Assembly: GCA_964016885.1 (NCBI GenBank)
Contig: OZ024741.1
Span: 164,424,001 to 164,488,000, forward strand
DNA from: Eledone cirrhosa
Lineage: Eukaryota
Reading direction: 5' to 3'
DNA length: 64,000 nucleotides
Below, piece after piece: positions 8,098-60,530 of this stretch. Within the stretch, counting starts at the first letter, position 1. Each line of letters starts with the position of its first letter. Both the position numbers and the translations under genes were made by a program. Under the pieces are notes generated by a model. The model saw only the letters and a program-made list of their open reading frames with translations, made no database searches and had not been told where the DNA came from.

Positions 8098-8524
8098 TTA
8101 AAGTCCTTTCTGAAACCTACCATCTATTAATGAAGTAAATTAACACCAAGTAAAGATGTGTGTCCTTATGGTCTTAATGTAGTAAGGTTGGAACCTGGTG
8201 GCTTTTTGTGTAATTGAGTAAGGCACTTATATCATAAGCGTCCATATGCTATATCAAATCGCTTATATAAATGTTCATATATTTGCATCATTATATCATA
8301 ACATATTTCCGTTGCTAATTTTCTCCTTTTTTGTTTTCATTATATTTCATCGTAATGCAGTTTATATATAATATCGTCTTTTTTAAATATATCATGGATT
8401 ACTTTACTGATTACATAAGACAGTGTAACAGACTTTGTTCAATTTCTGTGTATATTGTCAATTACGATTTTATGAGATGTATCATATCTATATGCATATA
8501 ATATCAACATACACACTACACATG

Positions 8525-8562
8525 CTAGCAGAAAACCACCCGAAGGGTGGTTTATCTGCTAG
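8525..8562 (+). mobile_element. Possible Helitron 3' terminus or short hairpin
   Basis: An AAACCACCCGAAGGGTGGTTT hairpin is followed by ATCTGCTAG|T. The 5' end was not identified. Confidence 0.4.
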
Positions 8563-8570
8563 TATATATA

Positions 8571-8618
<48 letters not shown>

Positions 8619-9561
8619 ATATATAAGTTTGTGTCTGTTCAATGTAACTTAGGAGTTTGACAAAATTAGATTGATAAAATAAATACAAGACTTGAAGAAA
8701 TAAGTACTAGTGTTGATATATTCAAGTAAATCGAACTGGTACTCCAGCATGACTGCAGCCTAATGATAAAATCCAGTAAAATAGTATATATACATAAGAT
8801 CCTTATCTCATAGAGCAGTACGTAACAGTAATATTCTGAAACCCACATGAACTGACTATGTCCTTCCTTTATAAATGTGTGGCTTTCTGCCGGTGTAAAA
8901 AAAAACAGCACTATTGTTATAAATATGTATTAAATTAGAAATCATTATTCAATTATGCATATCTCTTTGAAGATTTTGAGTAAGAACTATTTAAAATCTA
9001 ATTTACTTTTGAGTAAGAACTATTTAAAATCTAATTTACTTAAATATGGTAAACAAATTTGAATAGAAAAAATTAAGCGAGGGAATAATTTATATATTTT
9101 CTCATAATTCTATGTATTTTTCTTCTCTTAACACATTTACCCCTTTTGTTACCAAACCATCTGAGACTGCTCTAGTTTCGACAATACAAACCAATATATT
9201 TTTTTATGTTTATATCTATCTAAAAACGTGATATCAAAATTATTTGTAAGAATTTTTGTTGTTCCAATCATACTTAATAATGATAATGTTAATTATTTGA
9301 CTAAATCACTCAAATTCTTGGCTATTTCCAAATTATGTGAAAATAATAGGCAGTGATTTTTATTAAAAATATGGTAAAGAAAGGGCTAAGATATTTTGAA
9401 ATATCTTTTTGAGAATCATGAATGAAAAAATATGAAACATTCCAGTCTGAGGAAAACAATCCGTGATGGTGACCTGCGGTTTCACTGACAGACACATATA
9501 ACAATGTAAAATGTCATATGCAGGCAAGATGGCAGCTTTGTGAAAACAGGAGTTCACTTAC

Positions 9562-9645
9562 ATGTAGAGGGCCATCACTGAGAGGTGGTGGGGCTATAAA
9601 GACAATGAAGGGAGAGAACTCAGCTGTGCGTAAAGCTTTCAGATC
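9562..9645 (-). CDS. CASK: CASK GK exon, variant B (duplicated, candidate mutually exclusive exon)
   Basis: The 84-nt exon is phase 0/0 with ttttttccAG and CAT|GTAAGT boundaries. It reads [28 protein letters not shown] with no stop codon. Confidence 0.85.
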
Positions 9646-10509
9646 CTGGAAAAAACGAAATCAGGACAATGCCATGCATTTTAATACTAAAATATTTAAA
9701 AACAACATGGCTGGGGAAGCAAGAAGCCATCAAGCAAAAATTAGAAATCATAGATGTTATACTAAATATGCGTGCAGTCAGCATAACATGTTTTCATCCC
9801 TTGGGGGTTGGTTTGTGGTGGCATTTGGGTTTATTTGATTTCTTACCTACAAAAAAATATATCTCTGAGAAAAATGAGATGTGTGTGTGTATATATATAT
9901 ATATATGTGTGTGTGTGTAAGTATGAATGTTTCTGCAATTACCTTCCACCTATGCCACTCACCCTACAAAACAATAATGCCTGACTGAAATAGTCATGCA
10001 AGCATTTCAAAAAGCACATCTAACAAACTAACATTCTACTTCAAAATATTGTAAATTCTTCTTAAAGGAATTTGACAATTTTCTTTCCTTTTAAATATCA
10101 AAATTGTTCCATGATTTATATTTAAAGATGAGTCTGTGGGTGCTTGTATCCATCTATATGTATGTATTTATAACACACGTTTTAGGTTATCCAGCATATA
10201 TATACATACTAACACATGTGTGTGAGTATGAATATGTATGTAGCAAGGTATGGATATATTACAAGATTAATTAATTTTTTTCATTAAAACAAAACAACTG
10301 AAGGTTGACATATTTTGAATGTATAAGATTATACACACACACATATTCACATATATATATATATATGCACATACATGTGTATATATATATATGTGTCTGT
10401 GTATGTATGTGGATATGTAGAAAAGCAACAAAAATCAAATAAGGAACAAGAAGGAAACAACAACAGGGGTTAGAGAAAAAAACTGAAAAGCCAAGCTTAT
10501 ATATATATT

Positions 10510-10584
<75 letters not shown>

Positions 10585-10725
10585 TGTATGTATATATATA
10601 TATATATATATATATTCACACACACACACATTCAAAGGTATGTAAAGTTAACAGGAAATAGAAAAGCAATGGGTTAAAAAGGGTTAATATGAGGCATGGC
10701 ATCATGAGGCCGGATCAAATTTTAC

Positions 10726-10806
10726 CTCAGTTACAGCTGGTATCGTAGGGGCTGCAATGAAGACCACAAAGGGAGAAAATTCTGCTGTTCGCAACACCTT
10801 TACTGC
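10726..10806 (-). CDS. CASK: CASK GK exon, variant A (canonical-like)
   Basis: The 81-nt exon is phase 0/0 with ttttcAG and GAG|GTAAA boundaries. It reads [27 protein letters not shown] (human, from memory, [28 protein letters not shown]). Confidence 0.93.
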
Positions 10807-11169
10807 CTGAAAAGATGACAAGTACAAGAAACGTATGAATGCTGATTTGCAGGGAAAATCTGTGGCATTGGGAAAGATAGTGTAGGAATATGTGTGGAAC
10901 TACTTCACACATGGATGCATTTTATGTCTAGCATCTTTAGTCTAGGAATACAATATATTCTTCTCCCTCTTTTCAGAGCTCAGCTTGCTATATATCTATA
11001 TGTGTGTATAGATATCTCTGTTGTATGAATAAAATACATGCTACCGCATCTGCCTTGCTTATCTATTATAACAAATTTTTTCATATTTACTGCAAATAAT
11101 TAAATATTCATTAAAAATTGCTGAGGTGATCAGATGCTTATAGTAAGAGTATTCATTATGTTACATTAT

Positions 11170-11367
11170 TTCGGTAGACTGTCAGACACTATGCTTTGCA
11201 GCATAGAGTTATGGCTCTTTTCATTCTGCGTTCAAATCCCTACAAGGTTAGCTTTGCCTTTCATCCTTACAGGGTCAATAAAATAAAGCACCAGTAATGC
11301 ACTGGGGTCGATTTAATCAACTTTCTCGCACCCAAAATTGCTGGCCTTGTGTTTAGAAATCATTATT
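11170..11367 (+). mobile_element. SINE family A
   Basis: The B box, core and tail are present. It lies about 360 nt upstream (in transcript direction) of exon variant A. Confidence 0.85.
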
Positions 11368-12875
11368 TATGAGTGAAAGAAATTTATATGTGAAAGAAAC
11401 CAGAGTTTTAGAGTAAGGTTATTTTCATACAGAATTATTGCAATAATTTGTAATTTAACATGCTTTTATTGCTACTATTGAATAACCACAGTTATCCCTG
11501 CTTCAGCACACACATTACAGAACACATTGATCGACTGTCTTAGAGCAAACCTCAACTCAACAGACATCCAACATTTTCGTTTGGTCTGACGTTCAACATT
11601 TGGTCGACATTCTAGCTGTCTATCACTTTCTCAGTATGGACATGTTAGTCATTGCAAGTTATAGGACACAGAAACATTGTGATTGCTCTTAGATAGTTTA
11701 TTAAAGTAGATTTTAACTATTACAAATGGACATTAAACGATGATGAACATGATGATTGAGACATTATCATCATTTAACGTCCATTTTCCCTGCTAGAAAG
11801 GACTGGATGGATCGTCACAGACCTACTTAATTGGATTTACTGATCTCCCAGATGTATCGGGGGGCGGGGGATTTCTCATACTTTCTTGGACTCTGCAGGG
11901 TGCACTGGATATATTTTATCATAGCCCCAGTATTTGAGAAGTTGTAGTGACTTTGACACAACTAAAGTGTCCTCTTGACACTTTGTTCTGCTAATTTTCT
12001 ATGGCTGGATGCGCTTCTTATCACATTATGTAATTATATAAACATACTAATTGTTGTTATAACAATACATCTATTAATTCACTCTGCTGTTGATTAACAC
12101 TGGTCACCTTGGTCAATAAATGCTTGGAAAAGAGATGATCACTTAAAGAACTATTAACATTTCAGTTCTAATATTTAGGACTTAAAACATGAAGTCATTG
12201 CTTCAAAAACTGTAGATTAGTGGTTGCTAAGCTTATTTCATCATGAAACCCTTATATGATTTCCTACCATGGACAATAAAAAAAACCCTAATTTTAACAC
12301 GATGTTAAATGAAAAAATTTAAATAAAAAATTACATTTGAATTTTATAAAATTTTACTAAAAGACATGTCATCTCATGGTACCCCAATATTGTTTTACAG
12401 AAATATGAGGTTCCTTAGGACATTATTTGTGAAACATTAAAGTTGAGTATTTGTTGAGGAAGATTTCGTAATGTCTACATAAGTCACGCTCCTTACATAT
12501 CTTGTTTAAGCCCCTCAATACCATATTTCTACTAAATAACATTGTTTGTTATTTTCAAATAATTGCAAATATAATCAAGAATTTGGAGGGATTTAGTAAT
12601 ATAACTTTCTCCATTTTTAGGCTAGAGTCTGGAACATCACTTAAAGGCTCATACATAAGTTTATGATGGAAGATTTTTAGATAAATGTAAAGAATTTAAA
12701 ACAAACAGTTTTGTATCGTAGAACCAAAGCCAGTTTCAAGCAGTATCATATTCAATGGGTTAATGTTCTATTATGTCAGAAAGGTACCATTTAGCAGTGA
12801 AATCAGAGAAATCCTGATGGAACAGTGCAAATTTGTTTAAACTGACCACACCCAGCTTTGTTGACACTTTCGGTT

Positions 12876-18797: not shown

Positions 18798-19000
18798 CTG
18801 AGGTTCTACATCCAGTATTGCCATTAGACTTTCAGCATGTATATGTCGTATAGTTTCCAGTTTTGTGCCATACATAGCATCTTCATGTGTTCCATATTCT
18901 AAGTATTCGTTAGATTCTATATCTGCCATCATTTTTTTTCGGGTCACAAAATAATAATTTTTCCCATTTTCTTCATCTTTTCGTGGCGGTCGAGTTGTGT
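18798..19000 (-). CDS. CASK: CASK exon, GK domain core
   Basis: The 203-nt exon is phase 1/0, with a (CT)n-ACAG acceptor and a CAG|GTAATG donor. It reads (H)[67 protein letters not shown]. Confidence 0.97.
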
Positions 19001-19061
19001 CTGTAGAGTGAGAGAGAGAGAGAAAGGGGAGATAATTATTTCCATGTAACTATTAATGTCT

Positions 19062-19545
19062 CAATAAAATATACCCAGTACACTGTGTAAAGTGGTATTG
19101 CTGGTGTCACAATAACATATACCCAGTACACTGTGTAAAGTGGTATTGCTGGTGTCACAATAACATATACCCAGTACACTGTGTAAAGTGGTATTGCTGG
19201 TGTTACAATAAAATATACCCAGTACACTCTGTAAAATGGTAGTCCTGGTGTCACAATAAAATATACCCAGTACACTCTGTAAAGTGGTAGTACTGGTGTC
19301 ACAATAAAATATACCCAGTACACTCTGTAAAATGGTAGTCCTGGTGTCACAATAAAATATACCCAGTACACTCTGTAAAGTGGTAGTACTGGTGTCACAA
19401 TAAAATATACCCAGTACACTCTGTAAAGTGGTAGTCCTGGTGTCACAATAAAATATACCCAGTACACTCTGTAAAATGGTAGTCCTGGTGTCACAATAAA
19501 ATATACCCAGTACACTCTGTAAAATGGTATTGTTGGTTTCACAAT
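19062..19545. repeat. 48-bp minisatellite, about 10 copies
   Basis: The unit is AATAAAATATACCCAGTACACTCTGTAAAGTGGTAGTACTGGTGTCAC. Confidence 0.95.
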
Positions 19546-21256
19546 GCATTCAGTATGCCTGGTAAAGTTGTACTGCTGGTGCCAAAATAAAATGTATCCA
19601 ATACATTCTTTAAAGCGGTAGTGCTGGTGCCATGCTAAGATTTGCACACATATACTCATAGACAACATACTTTAGCAACACACAGACAGCAGTAGGACAA
19701 CACAATTTAGCAACACAGATACACAGACAATACAGTTTCATAATAATACACATGTACACATAGAGAACTCAGTTTAACAATACACATATACACATAGACA
19801 AAATACATAGAGTAAGTTGACAACTGAGTTAGAAACACTCAATGCATAAAAAACAGATGGGGTAGAATCTTAGTTTCAGCAATGATGGCTTATCTGAAGA
19901 GGTTGTAGGAGTTGCACAAAGACATATTCATGAGAAATCAATAAATAAATTAGCATGTAGATTATAATTGGCAATAATTAAAGATACTAAAAAACAACCT
20001 ACAAACTCTTTGTATTGATTCAACATGAATTTACCAAACATACTTTATATTATTAAAAGAATTATTATAAATTATTTGATAACGCCCAATACACCAAAAT
20101 CTGTAAGAGTTCCAATAATTAAATTCTTATACCAAGGAAACTACAAGATTTGTTCATTAAATGCTTGTATAAAAAACAGCCAAAAAGAATTCTTAAAATA
20201 AATGTACCAAAAGAATGTAAATAGTTTTATTGATATACAACTAATCTAAAGATCTATGAGTGTTCTATAGATAAATATCAGTTACCAGTTTTAAAAGATC
20301 TGCAAGAGTTCCTTTAATAGATGCTGGTATCCAAAAGTCTAAGAATTACACCAATATATATATATATGAGATGTAAAATATTAGTTTCTCTATCAATTTC
20401 ATGTATCAAGAGATCCATATTATGCTGATATCCAAAAGTCTAAAAATTCTTCAAATAAATAAATATATATGAGCCATAAAATATTACTTCCCCCATCAAT
20501 TGCATGAACAAAAGATCCATATTAGTTCTTCTCTCGTTGACCAGCATCAAAGGATCAAAAGAGCATCTTATAGTCCGAAACTTATCAATACAGCCACTGA
20601 CAGTTTCTCTACTAGTTTCCATTTTTCCATTGTGAAGAAATAATTCCAATAGCAAGCTGCATCTCTTTGATATTAGACTGCTACCCTATTGATTAAACTT
20701 TGAAAGCTAATTATGCGTTTTATCCTCTATCTCCACCACCAGCATTACCATTTCATTTAAGAGACTTCATTCACATTCCACTTTTATGTCTCAGTGAACA
20801 ATGCACTCCTTTGAAACTCTCCCTATCTCTCAACCTTCCATATTTCTATTTTCTCCTAACTCTCTCTCTTTCTCTCTATGACTGTCTCAGGCATTATCCT
20901 TCACTGTTATAATATTGAAGACAACACTGTTTGTTTACCAATATCATCTTTCTTCCTTCCTTATATAGATATTTCATCTCCAGTTGATGGAGAGAGGCAG
21001 AATTTCTGTTGGTTTTACTCTGAGCTATCCATTCTATATTTACCTTGTATTTCAACACCATCAAAACTAGATGTTGCAAATCAATAACATAGATTTCAAT
21101 ATTCGTTTTTAAAAACCTAAGGCAGTAATATTTTAAGAAATGATATTAACATCAGAAAATGTAGATCTTGTGCTTGCTAGGTTTCTAAATTTATTTATCT
21201 TTAAATCAAGTCTTAACATCAGCTGATTTATTCCATACTAATGAAGCTTATATGAC

Positions 21257-22768: not shown

Positions 22769-22849
22769 GTGGAATGGGATAAGCAAATTTATTGGGATGA
22801 CTTGTTATTAATGTGTTTTTAATATGCCTTCGTCCAACGCCATGAGCAC
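22769..22849 (-). CDS. CASK: CASK exon, GK domain degenerate P-loop region
   Basis: The 81-nt exon is phase 1/1 with AG and GTAAGT boundaries. It reads (G)[26 protein letters not shown](H), containing the CASK-typical [15 protein letters not shown] motif. Confidence 0.96.
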
Positions 22850-28144: not shown

Positions 28145-28343
28145 NNNNNNNNNNNNNNNNNNNNNNNNNNNNNNNNNNNNNNNNNNNNNNNNNNNNNNNN
28201 NNNNNNNNNNNNNNNNNNNNNNNNNNNNNNNNNNNNNNNNNNNNNNNNNNNNNNNNNNNNNNNNNNNNNNNNNNNNNNNNNNNNNNNNNNNNNNNNNNNN
28301 NNNNNNNNNNNNNNNNNNNNNNNNNNNNNNNNNNNNNNNNNNN
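28145..28343. other. Assembly gap
   Basis: This is a run of N. Confidence 1.
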
Positions 28344-28449
28344 NATATGTGAGAGGAGGAAGGGGAAATATAACTGTTTTTATATGAATGTAGAAAATAG
28401 AGAGGTGAATGTGGAAACTATTAGTAACTTTGATAGCACACACATACAG

Positions 28450-31940: not shown

Positions 31941-32028
31941 TAATGTTTGTATTTATCTCTTGTTCTCAGGCACCTGCCCTGAATATATAACCACCTTGAC
32001 TATAAGCTGAGATAAGAAAGCCACTTAC

Positions 32029-32169
32029 CTAAGAGGACTAGTGTCTTCCGGAGAAATGCAGGTAATCTCGCGACTTCTTCATAAGTAACTAAATCCAATT
32101 GATCAAATATAGCATTGAGTTTGGCAAGATATTTGTCTTTTTTTTTACGTCCAAACCACGAACAGTGAC
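32029..32169 (-). CDS. CASK: CASK exon, HOOK region and start of GK domain
   Basis: The 141-nt exon is phase 1/1, with a polypyrimidine+AG acceptor and a G|GTAAGT donor. It reads (G)[46 protein letters not shown](G). Confidence 0.96.
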
Positions 32170-51089: not shown

Positions 51090-51704
51090 ATGCATATGTA
51101 CAGATACACATAGAAAGCAGACATATGATGATGATGATGATATATATGTATGTATACACAATAGTTTATTCTGTTAGGTTCATAATCAGGCTCTAAACTA
51201 TCTTTGATTATGTAACAGTATGGTCTGACTCCTTAGGTCACTGTCTTTTCGTAATGTCATGTAATCAAGGGCAGTTTTGCACTTGATTACCGGTGAGATG
51301 TCATCATCCTGATTGTTTAACATCTATCTTCCACGCTAGCATGAGTTAAATGGAGTGTGTAATAGAATACACATATGTTAAACTGATCTCTCTTTTCTGG
51401 TTTTCATACTCTGCGGTCGTACTTGATATCAGATAGCAGTTATCTCCTGTTACTACATTATTGAAAAATGAGTAATTGTCCCCTAGGGCTGACACTACTT
51501 CACTTTGAAAGTAAACTTGCATTAACTGCAATCTAATAAACTGACATATGTGTGAGTGTGTTGTGTGTGTGTGTGTTGTGTGTTGTGTGTGTGTGTATGC
51601 ATTCTATCTAATTATTTCTGTGAGCTTTGTATATATATATTTATACTTGCCTCCATTTTCTCGTCTGGAATACTTGTCTATATTTTCTTTCTTCGAATAC
51701 TTGC

Positions 51705-51852
51705 CTGCACTTTCCTGTTTGGCTCTTTCAGAAGCTGCTGATGCCACACGACATTCTTGCAACTCTGGAGATGGTATAAGACCAGCTGGCTCAGTGGATG
51801 GAGAATTCCACTTTCGTGCCTGCCACCAGTGCGGGTCATCTTTGTTGATTAC
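51705..51852 (-). CDS. CASK: CASK exon, C-terminal half of SH3 and start of HOOK; ends at a GC donor
   Basis: The 148-nt exon has a tttcAG acceptor and reads [49 protein letters not shown] plus one G. The donor CAG|GCAAGT is phase 1 and joins the next exon in frame. Confidence 0.92.
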
Positions 51853-53334: not shown

Positions 53335-53433
53335 CTGCAATACATCTCCGATTTTAAATGGAATTCCAGCTTGAGGACAAGGATTTAGATCATCGGATGT
53401 TGGATCATAATCAAACAGAGCCCGAACAAATAT
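53335..53433 (-). CDS. CASK: CASK/LIN-2 MAGUK internal exon, N-terminal half of SH3 domain
   Basis: The 99-nt exon has an AG acceptor (53434-53435) and a GT donor (53333-53334), phase 0/0. It reads [33 protein letters not shown], matching the CASK SH3 start (human, from memory, [33 protein letters not shown]). Confidence 0.95.
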
Positions 53434-59057: not shown

Positions 59058-59940
59058 CAGGGTGTCATAGGTAAATTGGGACCATTTAAACATCTTTATT
59101 TTAACTGGTATAACTTAGAAAAATAAAACACAGCAAATTTTATGTTTATACCAATTTATTGTGGAGTGTTTAGCACTTATTTCAGTGACCTCCATTTGCT
59201 TTCTTTACCAGTTCATTTCATTTACGGAATGTCTTAACTATTTCTTTCTTTTTCTTTTTATCAAATGCTTGCTTGATCAAAGCCTTCAGTTGTGAGAAGT
59301 TCCATTAGATATTGCTTCAACTGCGTCCCATAGCCAAAAATTACATGGATTCAAATCTGGCAAGCTAGAGGGCCAGATATCTTTAGGGACAAACATGGGC
59401 AATTCCTTCTTCAAAAATTCTTGCAATCTTTTCGAAGTATGGGTGGGTGCAGAGTCCTGTACAAACATGACTGAACTTGCATCATAATTGTTTCTACTAT
59501 TGGCACAAGGCCAGCAATTACCCAGTACATTACTGGTACTTTATTTTATCGACCCCGTAAGGATGAAAGGCAAAGTTAACCTTGGCAGGATTTGAACTCA
59601 GAATGGCAAGGGCCGTAACTCTATGCGTCAAAGCATGGCGTCCGATCCTCTGCCGATACTGCCAATCCACCGCCCTTGCATCATAATGCTTCCTAATCCA
59701 AGACAACAAAACTTCTAAAACTTTGAAATACTCTGTTGTGTTGACTTTAAGACACACTTCAATAAAATGCAGAGGCATCAATTTCCCATCACTTACAACA
59801 GCTCCAAAGATCTTAATGGAAGCCATATTGTTGCTATGCATAGCTGAAGGAAATTTTGAAGTTTTGACGGTTGCATCTTTGTCTAACACAAACTTCTTTT
59901 CATCCATGAAGATGTGGACATATGAATGGAGTTCCACTGA
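59058..59940 (-). mobile_element. Truncated DD37D (maT-type) Tc1/mariner transposon, interrupted by a SINE
   Basis: The terminus TA|CAGGGTGTC is at 59058. Transposase motifs are IFMDEKKF, FVQDSAPTH and WPSSLPDLNPCNF, with 37 residues between the second D and the third catalytic position, which is now N. Confidence 0.85.
59489..59674 (-). mobile_element. SINE family A with 13-bp target-site duplication
   Basis: CTTGCATCATAAT occurs at 59476-59488 and 59675-59687. Confidence 0.95.
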
Positions 59941-59945
59941 AGCAG

Positions 59946-60530
59946 ATGGAGAAGTTCAAGTATTTTGGGGCCATGTATATGAGTGATGGAAGGCAGGAGG
60001 CTGAATTAAGTGCAAGAATTGCAGGATCTGGTGCAGTAATGCACAAGCTTCAACATTAGATAATTAGAAGAAGTAATTAGATAATTAGTAGGTGTAAAAG
60101 CCAAACTTGTTATCTTCAATTTGGTATATTTGCCAACCATTACCCATGTTCATGAATCTTGGGTAATGATAGAAAGAATACAATTGTGAATACAAGCGGC
60201 TGAAATAGAGTTCCTCGAAAGGGTCTTTGAAGTAACATCTGTTAATTGCTTGGAGATCAGAGAGACACTACTGCTCTGGATTGAGAGATCACAGCTCCAG
60301 TACTATGGGCATGTGGCTAGAATGTCTTAGGAAAGAATTGCTGGACAGATTTTATGGGCAAAGAGCAGGAGACCCAGGGGTAGACCCTGAGCAAGATGAT
60401 TAGATAACATCAATGACCTCAGCTGGTCTTGTTTAGGGAAACAGTTACTTCTGACAGGACCTGCTGGAAGGAGTCTTTGAGTACTCTGTCCCCACGTCCC
60501 TCGTAGGAACAAGTGGGCGAAGAAGAAGAT
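59946..60530 (+). mobile_element. Degenerate RTE/Expander-like LINE 3' fragment
   Basis: It reads EKFKYFG..SDGRQEAELSARI, ..HESWVM..IQAAEIEFL and SQLQYYGHVARM..RPRGRP, with stops. Confidence 0.8.

Follow-up and report, generated by a model that had tools for sequence, protein, structure and literature searches.

A tandem pair of homologous, probably alternative exons in the CASK gene of the octopus Eledone cirrhosa and other lophotrochozoans

The CASK locus and its duplicated GK exon

We analysed a window of 64,000 nucleotides from the 3.0 Gb genome assembly of Eledone cirrhosa (contig OZ024741.1, positions 164,424,001 to 164,488,000), the minus strand of which carries exons for the SH3, HOOK and GK parts of CASK; the protein encoded in the window is 96-100% identical to that of Octopus bimaculoides. 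CASK, encoded by a single gene, is a scaffold of synapses and junctions, and its GK domain has partners in the nucleus and at membranes. Of the domain order CaMK-L27-PDZ-SH3-GK, the SH3, HOOK and GK parts were matched in the window, and the N-terminal domains, which lie outside it, are seen in the records of relatives. Read along the minus strand, the locus comprises the first (53335..53433) and second (51649..51852) SH3 exons, a HOOK/GK-start exon (32027..32168) and a GK exon with the sequence GAHGVGRRH (22770..22849), all four with approximate bounds, followed by a GK exon of 203 nt (18798..19000) that ends in phase 0. The donor of this last exon is common to exon A (10726..10806; 81 nt, 27 aa, with a short linker) and exon B (9562..9645; 84 nt, 28 aa, an alternative version of the same segment), which are separated by an intron of 1080 nt (9646..10725). 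The terminal CASK exon starts 461 nt past the window start (locus L002) and is preceded by CAG. Both A and B are counterparts of mammalian exon 25, and a third copy was not found in the window or in the 40 kb downstream of it. The window also holds an assembly gap of 200 N (28145-28344) in the intron that separates the HOOK exon from the first GK exon, a tandem repeat with a unit of about 39 nt (19039-19671) that begins a short way upstream of the 203-nt exon's acceptor, and, in the intron that precedes the SH3 exons, fragments of a transposase-like reading frame (59289-59955, minus strand), which may resemble Tc1/mariner.

The initial annotation, made from the sequence, had described two phase 0/0 exons 1080 nt apart that encode the same segment, and translation of 10806-10726 and 9645-9562 confirmed this. 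The splice sites are good, as had been stated, with a pyrimidine tract and a CAG acceptor before each exon and a GT donor after it (GTAAAA and GTAAGT). Over the first 21 codons, A and B share 40 of 63 nucleotides and 15 of 21 core residues: four codons are identical, 11 differ synonymously and six change the residue. The stretch LRTAEFSPF reads the same in both proteins with synonymous differences in six of its nine codons, again in line with the earlier description. Within the window the A/B cross-match has an E-value of about 4e-6 and the next match one of 1.7, and exon B matches only once in the whole genome. An assembly artefact is ruled out by this level of nucleotide identity, by the single genomic match of B and by the presence of both copies in relatives. 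Three DNA contigs (runs X1-X3, one sample) also span the exon B region unbroken, with one intronic difference; they are not independent of the assembly, since the sample may be its source. The difference is a single base at window position 9657, in the pyrimidine tract before exon B, which departs from the assembly in all three contigs and reflects either an allele or an assembly error.

The exon segment aligns with residues 107-134 of the human CASK GK domain (1KGD). In AlphaFold models of the B and A isoforms of Octopus sinensis, the region forms a helix (857-863), a strand (871-876), a loop and a further helix from residue 889 (B) or 887 (A). The quality of these models is modest (mean pLDDT 65 for B and 59 for A, and about 55-58 in the linker block), so that the shape of the linker cannot be read from them. 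On these models, the exon is predicted to encode a helix and a core strand, together with the linker that leads to the next (lid) helix, and the two copies would share the helix and the strand and differ mainly in this linker, A having a short one and B a longer one. Including both exons would thus repeat the core strand, and skipping both would delete it. From the nucleotide-kinase fold, we take this linker or loop to be the start of the lid subdomain, and the earlier proposal of GK variants near the lid region fits the models. Just after the strand, PALS1 is longer and p55 slightly shorter than the CASK GK domain. As the GK domain of PSD-95 needs all three subdomains for phosphopeptide binding, according to PMC10171801, a changed partner affinity through the A/B swap is plausible by analogy. 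The linker would be the start of a reduced lid subdomain, A and B would be the short-linker and alternative-linker forms of a putative partner-binding GK domain, and the switch between them would tune partner binding while the fold is kept. Among cephalopods, exon A is conserved at 27 of 27 residues and exon B at 18 and 17 of 21 core residues; B is thus the faster-evolving copy in this group, and the invariance of A and the variability of B suggest that A is the main form there.

Use of the two exons in relatives

In the proteins of relatives, we examined the stretch that lies between ILDVEPQ and the last exon, and typed it as A when it had 27 residues from the exon start and as B when it was longer. 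The proteins were taken from three homology searches (the best 120 of 3099, of 3381 and of 658 matches) and from three cluster look-ups with up to 15 members listed per cluster. Our count covers 204 species-named records with a complete segment from 45 lophotrochozoan species; left out are 10 species-named records without a complete segment, including two Dreissena models, a Liolophura paralog (B type), one MetaClust record with A and B, and records without a species name. Record numbers are not equivalent to abundances or read counts, and we assume that the XP_ records, which are automatic models, have RNA support. The Dreissena models P0439 (X7) and P0443 (X6) run on from A into the intron and stop, so that the last exon is missing from the GK domain; in the Eledone window, read-through from exon A into the intron would add VKFDPAS and then stop.

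Of the 204 records among the matches listed, 191 contain exactly one copy, which is A in 71 and B in 120; both exons are present in 11 and neither in 2. Both single forms occur in 22 of the 45 species, and both exons in 26, among these same matches. The 22 species span four mollusc classes (with Octopus, Liolophura, gastropods and bivalves among the taxa), the brachiopod Lingula and the nemertean Lineus. The records with both exons come from Liolophura (four), Crassostrea virginica (two), and Magallana gigas, Mya, Lottia, Tubulanus and Pinctada (one each), and in all 11 listed the order is A and then B; the two listed records that skip both come from Mercenaria and Mytilus galloprovincialis. 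Since both exons are multiples of three in length, the double and the skip forms stay in frame.

In cephalopods, A alone is found in 23 and B alone in 5 of the 28 records among the matches listed, and none has both. The models of Octopus sinensis are divided between the two forms, four of six having B only (X5, X7, X8 and X10) and two A only (X9 and X12), while all listed records of O. bimaculoides (9/9), O. vulgaris (1/1) and Sepia (4/4) have A only. Spliced Logan contigs carry A in seven of eight cases and B in one. Decapodiform-like contigs of about 3 kb, which must be spliced as they encode about 900 residues, and which belong to a cluster whose last exon matches that of Sepia, include four with A (P0009, P0148, P0150 and P0151) and one with B (P0149). 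Judged from these relatives, the two exons are very probably spliced one at a time in Eledone. The proposed either-or use is therefore borne out by the O. sinensis models and the decapodiform-like contigs as far as the choice of one copy is concerned, but it may be leaky, given the 11 records with both exons and the 2 with neither among the 204.

Candidate controls of exon choice

Several known routes to mutual exclusion do not fit the Eledone locus. The donors GTAATG, GTAAAA and GTAAGT, read by eye, are without the U12 donor consensus, which speaks against U2/U12 incompatibility. Nonsense-mediated decay of double or skip forms is rejected, since exons of 81 and 84 nt cause no frameshift. Classic steric hindrance operates when a donor lies within about 60 nt of a branch point, as given in PMC13762713, and the intron between A and B has 1080 nt. 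A distant branch point is not indicated either, since AG dinucleotides in this intron at -43, -67, -118 and beyond leave no long AG-free zone.

A scan for pairings pointed to a predicted stem on the minus strand between 10694..10705 (5' arm, +21 to +32 after the A donor) and 9666..9678 (3' arm, -33 to -21 before the B acceptor), the latter holding the motif TGCATG; the complementary bases of this arm are those at -32 to -21. The 45-nt flanks of the A donor and the B acceptor pair at -23.4 kcal/mol, which only 1 of 1000 dinucleotide shuffles equalled, while the seven other donor/acceptor pairings are unremarkable (50-262 of 300 shuffles). In the ensemble of the whole intron, 10 of the 12 stem pairs have a pair probability of 0.72-0.82. 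Evidence against the stem is that a scan had picked it out beforehand and that, among real sequences, 113 of 1872 acceptor-like 45-mers pair equally well with the A-donor flank; the reverse control gave 8 of 1848. The stem was not found in the bivalve contig L032 (150 of 300 shuffles as good), and among the matches listed bivalves supply double-inclusion models and cephalopods none. A stem of 10-12 bp joining the A donor flank to the B branch-point region would bring the A donor to about 25 nt from the presumed branch point of B, and could in this way block splicing from A to B. That it prevents double inclusion is a tentative proposal, which we rate somewhat below even chances.

A second predicted helix joins a single-copy intronic element, E (11483..11512, minus strand), to an element S_A (10837..10868, minus strand) at -62 to -31 before the A acceptor. 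At -36.6 kcal/mol it is the best pairing in 19 kb, and was matched by none of 60 shuffles and 2 of 120 real controls. In a duplex scan with eight splice-site probes (four from the octopus, four from L032), the octopus A acceptor alone beat all 20 shuffles. Among the inverted repeats in 8500-12000, the 25 longest of 322 gave AT microsatellite pairs. A second selector for E before exon B, as in docking/selector systems, was not found among its six best partners. Exon 17 of Dscam in Drosophila and other insects is reportedly an exclusive pair of two exons controlled by steric hindrance together with RNA secondary structure (Yue et al. 2013). The structures at Dscam exon 17 are reported to be conserved and to have been tested, whereas both CASK helices are predicted from one genome and the stem is absent from one bivalve.

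The motif TGCATG in the 3' arm is, we assume, of the RBFOX type, and when RBFOX binds ahead of an exon the usual outcome is repression of that exon. GCATG occurs before exon B in 3 of 3 acceptors and in 7 of 58 other acceptors of the same exon, a count made post hoc in which two of the three exon-B cases are related bivalves; in both bivalve-like contigs it lies at -38 before B. At acceptor-like sites in the window its frequency is 5%. In neurons and muscle, repression of B by RBFOX at this upstream GCATG would favour A. The A-type entry of Lymnaea (Q869F9) was reportedly cloned from nervous tissue. We consider a neural/non-neural switch acting through this motif doubtful, and it is improbable that the whole chain holds, that is, a switch of Cambrian age between neural and non-neural lids in molluscs, brachiopods and nemerteans, which in cephalopods would be rendered strict by a stem that clamps the A donor to the B branch point and competes with RBFOX for the same twelve bases.

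Age of the pair and what it may mean

Wherever the pair occurs among the matches listed, exon A has 27 aa, and the Eledone A protein is identical to that in records of O. bimaculoides, O. sinensis, O. vulgaris and Sepia pharaonis. Exon B ranges from 28 to 35 aa, with 28 in Eledone, 29 in O. sinensis, 33 in the decapodiform-like contig and 32-35 in other molluscs, Lingula and nemerteans. The genomic arrangement recurs in a bivalve-like contig (L032), which has the upstream exon, 733 nt of intron, A, 1505 nt and B. L031 and L032, which are one contig, are alone in having two copies among 80 metagenome loci with full flanks, most of which are too short or come from other groups. When each clade was scored with itself left out, A matched A and B matched B in 16 of 16 pairs over 27 columns and in 15 of 16 over 21 columns, Lingula being the discordant case. 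A tree of 33 exon peptides over 32 columns requires 2 label changes against a mean of 11.3 for shuffled labels, and none of 500 shuffles was as low. In the exon peptides, A and B therefore group by type and not by species. A single A clade is not rejected (p-AU 0.51), although each type forms one group in only 9% of bootstrap trees over the 32 columns, and in the best tree the nemertean B sits among the A rows. Rather than being particular to octopuses, the pair also occurs in other molluscs, a brachiopod and nemerteans, and it is older than the initial annotation supposed. The simplest reading of the peptide comparisons is that one duplication probably preceded the split of molluscs, brachiopods and nemerteans, which dates to over 500 million years ago.

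Outside these groups, no A/B pair was seen among the arthropod, echinoderm, hemichordate and vertebrate records listed, which have a single version of 27-30 residues. Among the matches listed, the eight hemichordate records are all alike, and the 33 Branchiostoma records have one version plus added tails; alternative amphioxus models (P0190 and P0213) add 9 or 20 residues to the same linker, which is a separate route to variation in lid length. Only a B-length segment was seen in Macrostomum and in the rotifer Didymodactylos, with one record each. In five rotifer-like contigs (L017, L021, L058, L064 and L085) no intron separates a B-length exon from the upstream exon, the two being fused, which leaves no room for exon A, and A was possibly lost there through a B-type transcript. 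The annelid records, two from Owenia and one from Capitella, are all B-length. Worm-like spliced contigs are A-length (L014 and L051) or B-length (L028, L037 and L043), with no A/B pair assignable to one gene among them, and three worm-like genomic loci (L007, L034 and L076) have both flanking exons and one copy each. Worm-like genomic contigs (these three and L011, L025, L036, L060, L061, L018, L039 and L059) represent several CASK paralog types, each with a single copy of the exon, of A length or less; in that lineage, duplicated genes may have taken the place of the splice switch.

The worm-like loci with one copy would agree with separate duplications of the exon in cephalopods, other molluscs, brachiopods and nemerteans, each time converging on a short first and a long second copy, and the short alignment, the nemertean B among the A rows and the discordance of Lingula on 21 columns point the same way. 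Against this stand the constant order, the fixed 27 aa of A, the full concordance on 27 columns and the single clade that the data do not reject; moreover, losses in some lineages would be simpler than four parallel gains. We consider separate origins quite unlikely and prefer the single early duplication.

Two further readings concern the either-or use rather than the age. A and B might be independent cassette exons, with double and skip forms made at real levels and the apparent exclusion arising from opposite tissue regulation. The 11 double and 2 skip records among the 204 listed are compatible with this, no frameshift polices such forms, and L032 lacks the stem; but none of the 28 cephalopod records listed has both exons, the models have the core strand repeated in one form and deleted in the other, and four of the double records, each the sole model listed for its species, may stem from faulty prediction. 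This makes independent cassettes, in our judgment, highly improbable. Alternatively, B might be decaying in octopods, as a rarely used leftover beside an effectively constitutive A. Its shortening to 28-29 aa from 32-35, the branch of O. sinensis B, which at 1.07 is the longest of the tree, and the 23 A records among the 28 listed for cephalopods would agree with decay; yet the frame and both splice sites of B are intact, the core differences are mostly synonymous, and the four O. sinensis models and the spliced decapodiform-like contig use it. Decay of B is accordingly very unlikely indeed, and one-at-a-time use of two intact copies remains the reading we prefer.

Catalogues of tandem duplicated exon substitutions have reportedly been assembled by Martinez Gomez et al. 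We found no description of the A/B pair in CASK in the open literature, covered through titles and abstract openings, with subscription journals and most supplements outside this range; CASK does not occur in the main text of PMC9741552 or in one supplementary file of PMC8373072. The systems in these two sources resemble the CASK pair in that ancient homologous exons lie next to each other, have the same phase and serve one at a time, and in that the choice changes one structural element of a domain. However, the two catalogues are human-centred, whereas the CASK copies differ in length and the pair is seen only in lophotrochozoans. Alternatively used duplicated exons are also known in molluscs, from coq-2 a/e (PMC7434440) and oyster AOX (PMC5589949), which switch enzyme chemistry, while the CASK pair would tune the binding surface of a scaffold. 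The available text of PMC9282427 gives CASK gene counts for Aplysia and Octopus and analyses alternative transcripts only for unc13.

In mammals, CASK exons 24 and 25 have 203 and 84 bp (PMC3447378, Dembowski et al. 2012), and the octopus upstream exon, like mammalian exon 24, has 203 nt and ends in Q. The same paper describes E24a, a mammal-specific cassette of 40 residues, mostly skipped, at the junction Q835/A836 between exons 24 and 25; it is an unrelated insertion, unlike A/B, which is a homologous replacement of the exon-25 equivalent (PMC3447378). Short inserts before the exon were also seen in lophotrochozoans: seven residues, LLG[TS]E[MK]D, in worm-like transcripts of both A- and B-length (L014, L051 and L028), 11 residues in Liolophura (P0011/P0155), 4 in Magallana angulata (P0331) and 21 in Littorina (P0449). 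With these inserts and the independently acquired E24a of mammals at the same junction, splicing appears to have targeted this site repeatedly. Human brain variants of CASK (exons 11, 19, 20 and 23L) alter partner binding by splicing too, but they differ in inter-domain linkers (PMC8208546), whereas the choice of A or B exchanges a piece of the folded GK domain.

We conclude that the homologous alternative exons of this CASK locus are a real and ancient pair, apparently without an earlier description, of a kind that is itself well known. Both isoforms are already present, unremarked, in automatic annotations, and work on CASK in Lymnaea, Aplysia and cephalopod neurons may have used one form only. 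The retention of two GK variants in three phyla suggests that the linker that follows the core strand is a part of the domain that can be tuned; taken by itself, the human structure reveals little about this region.
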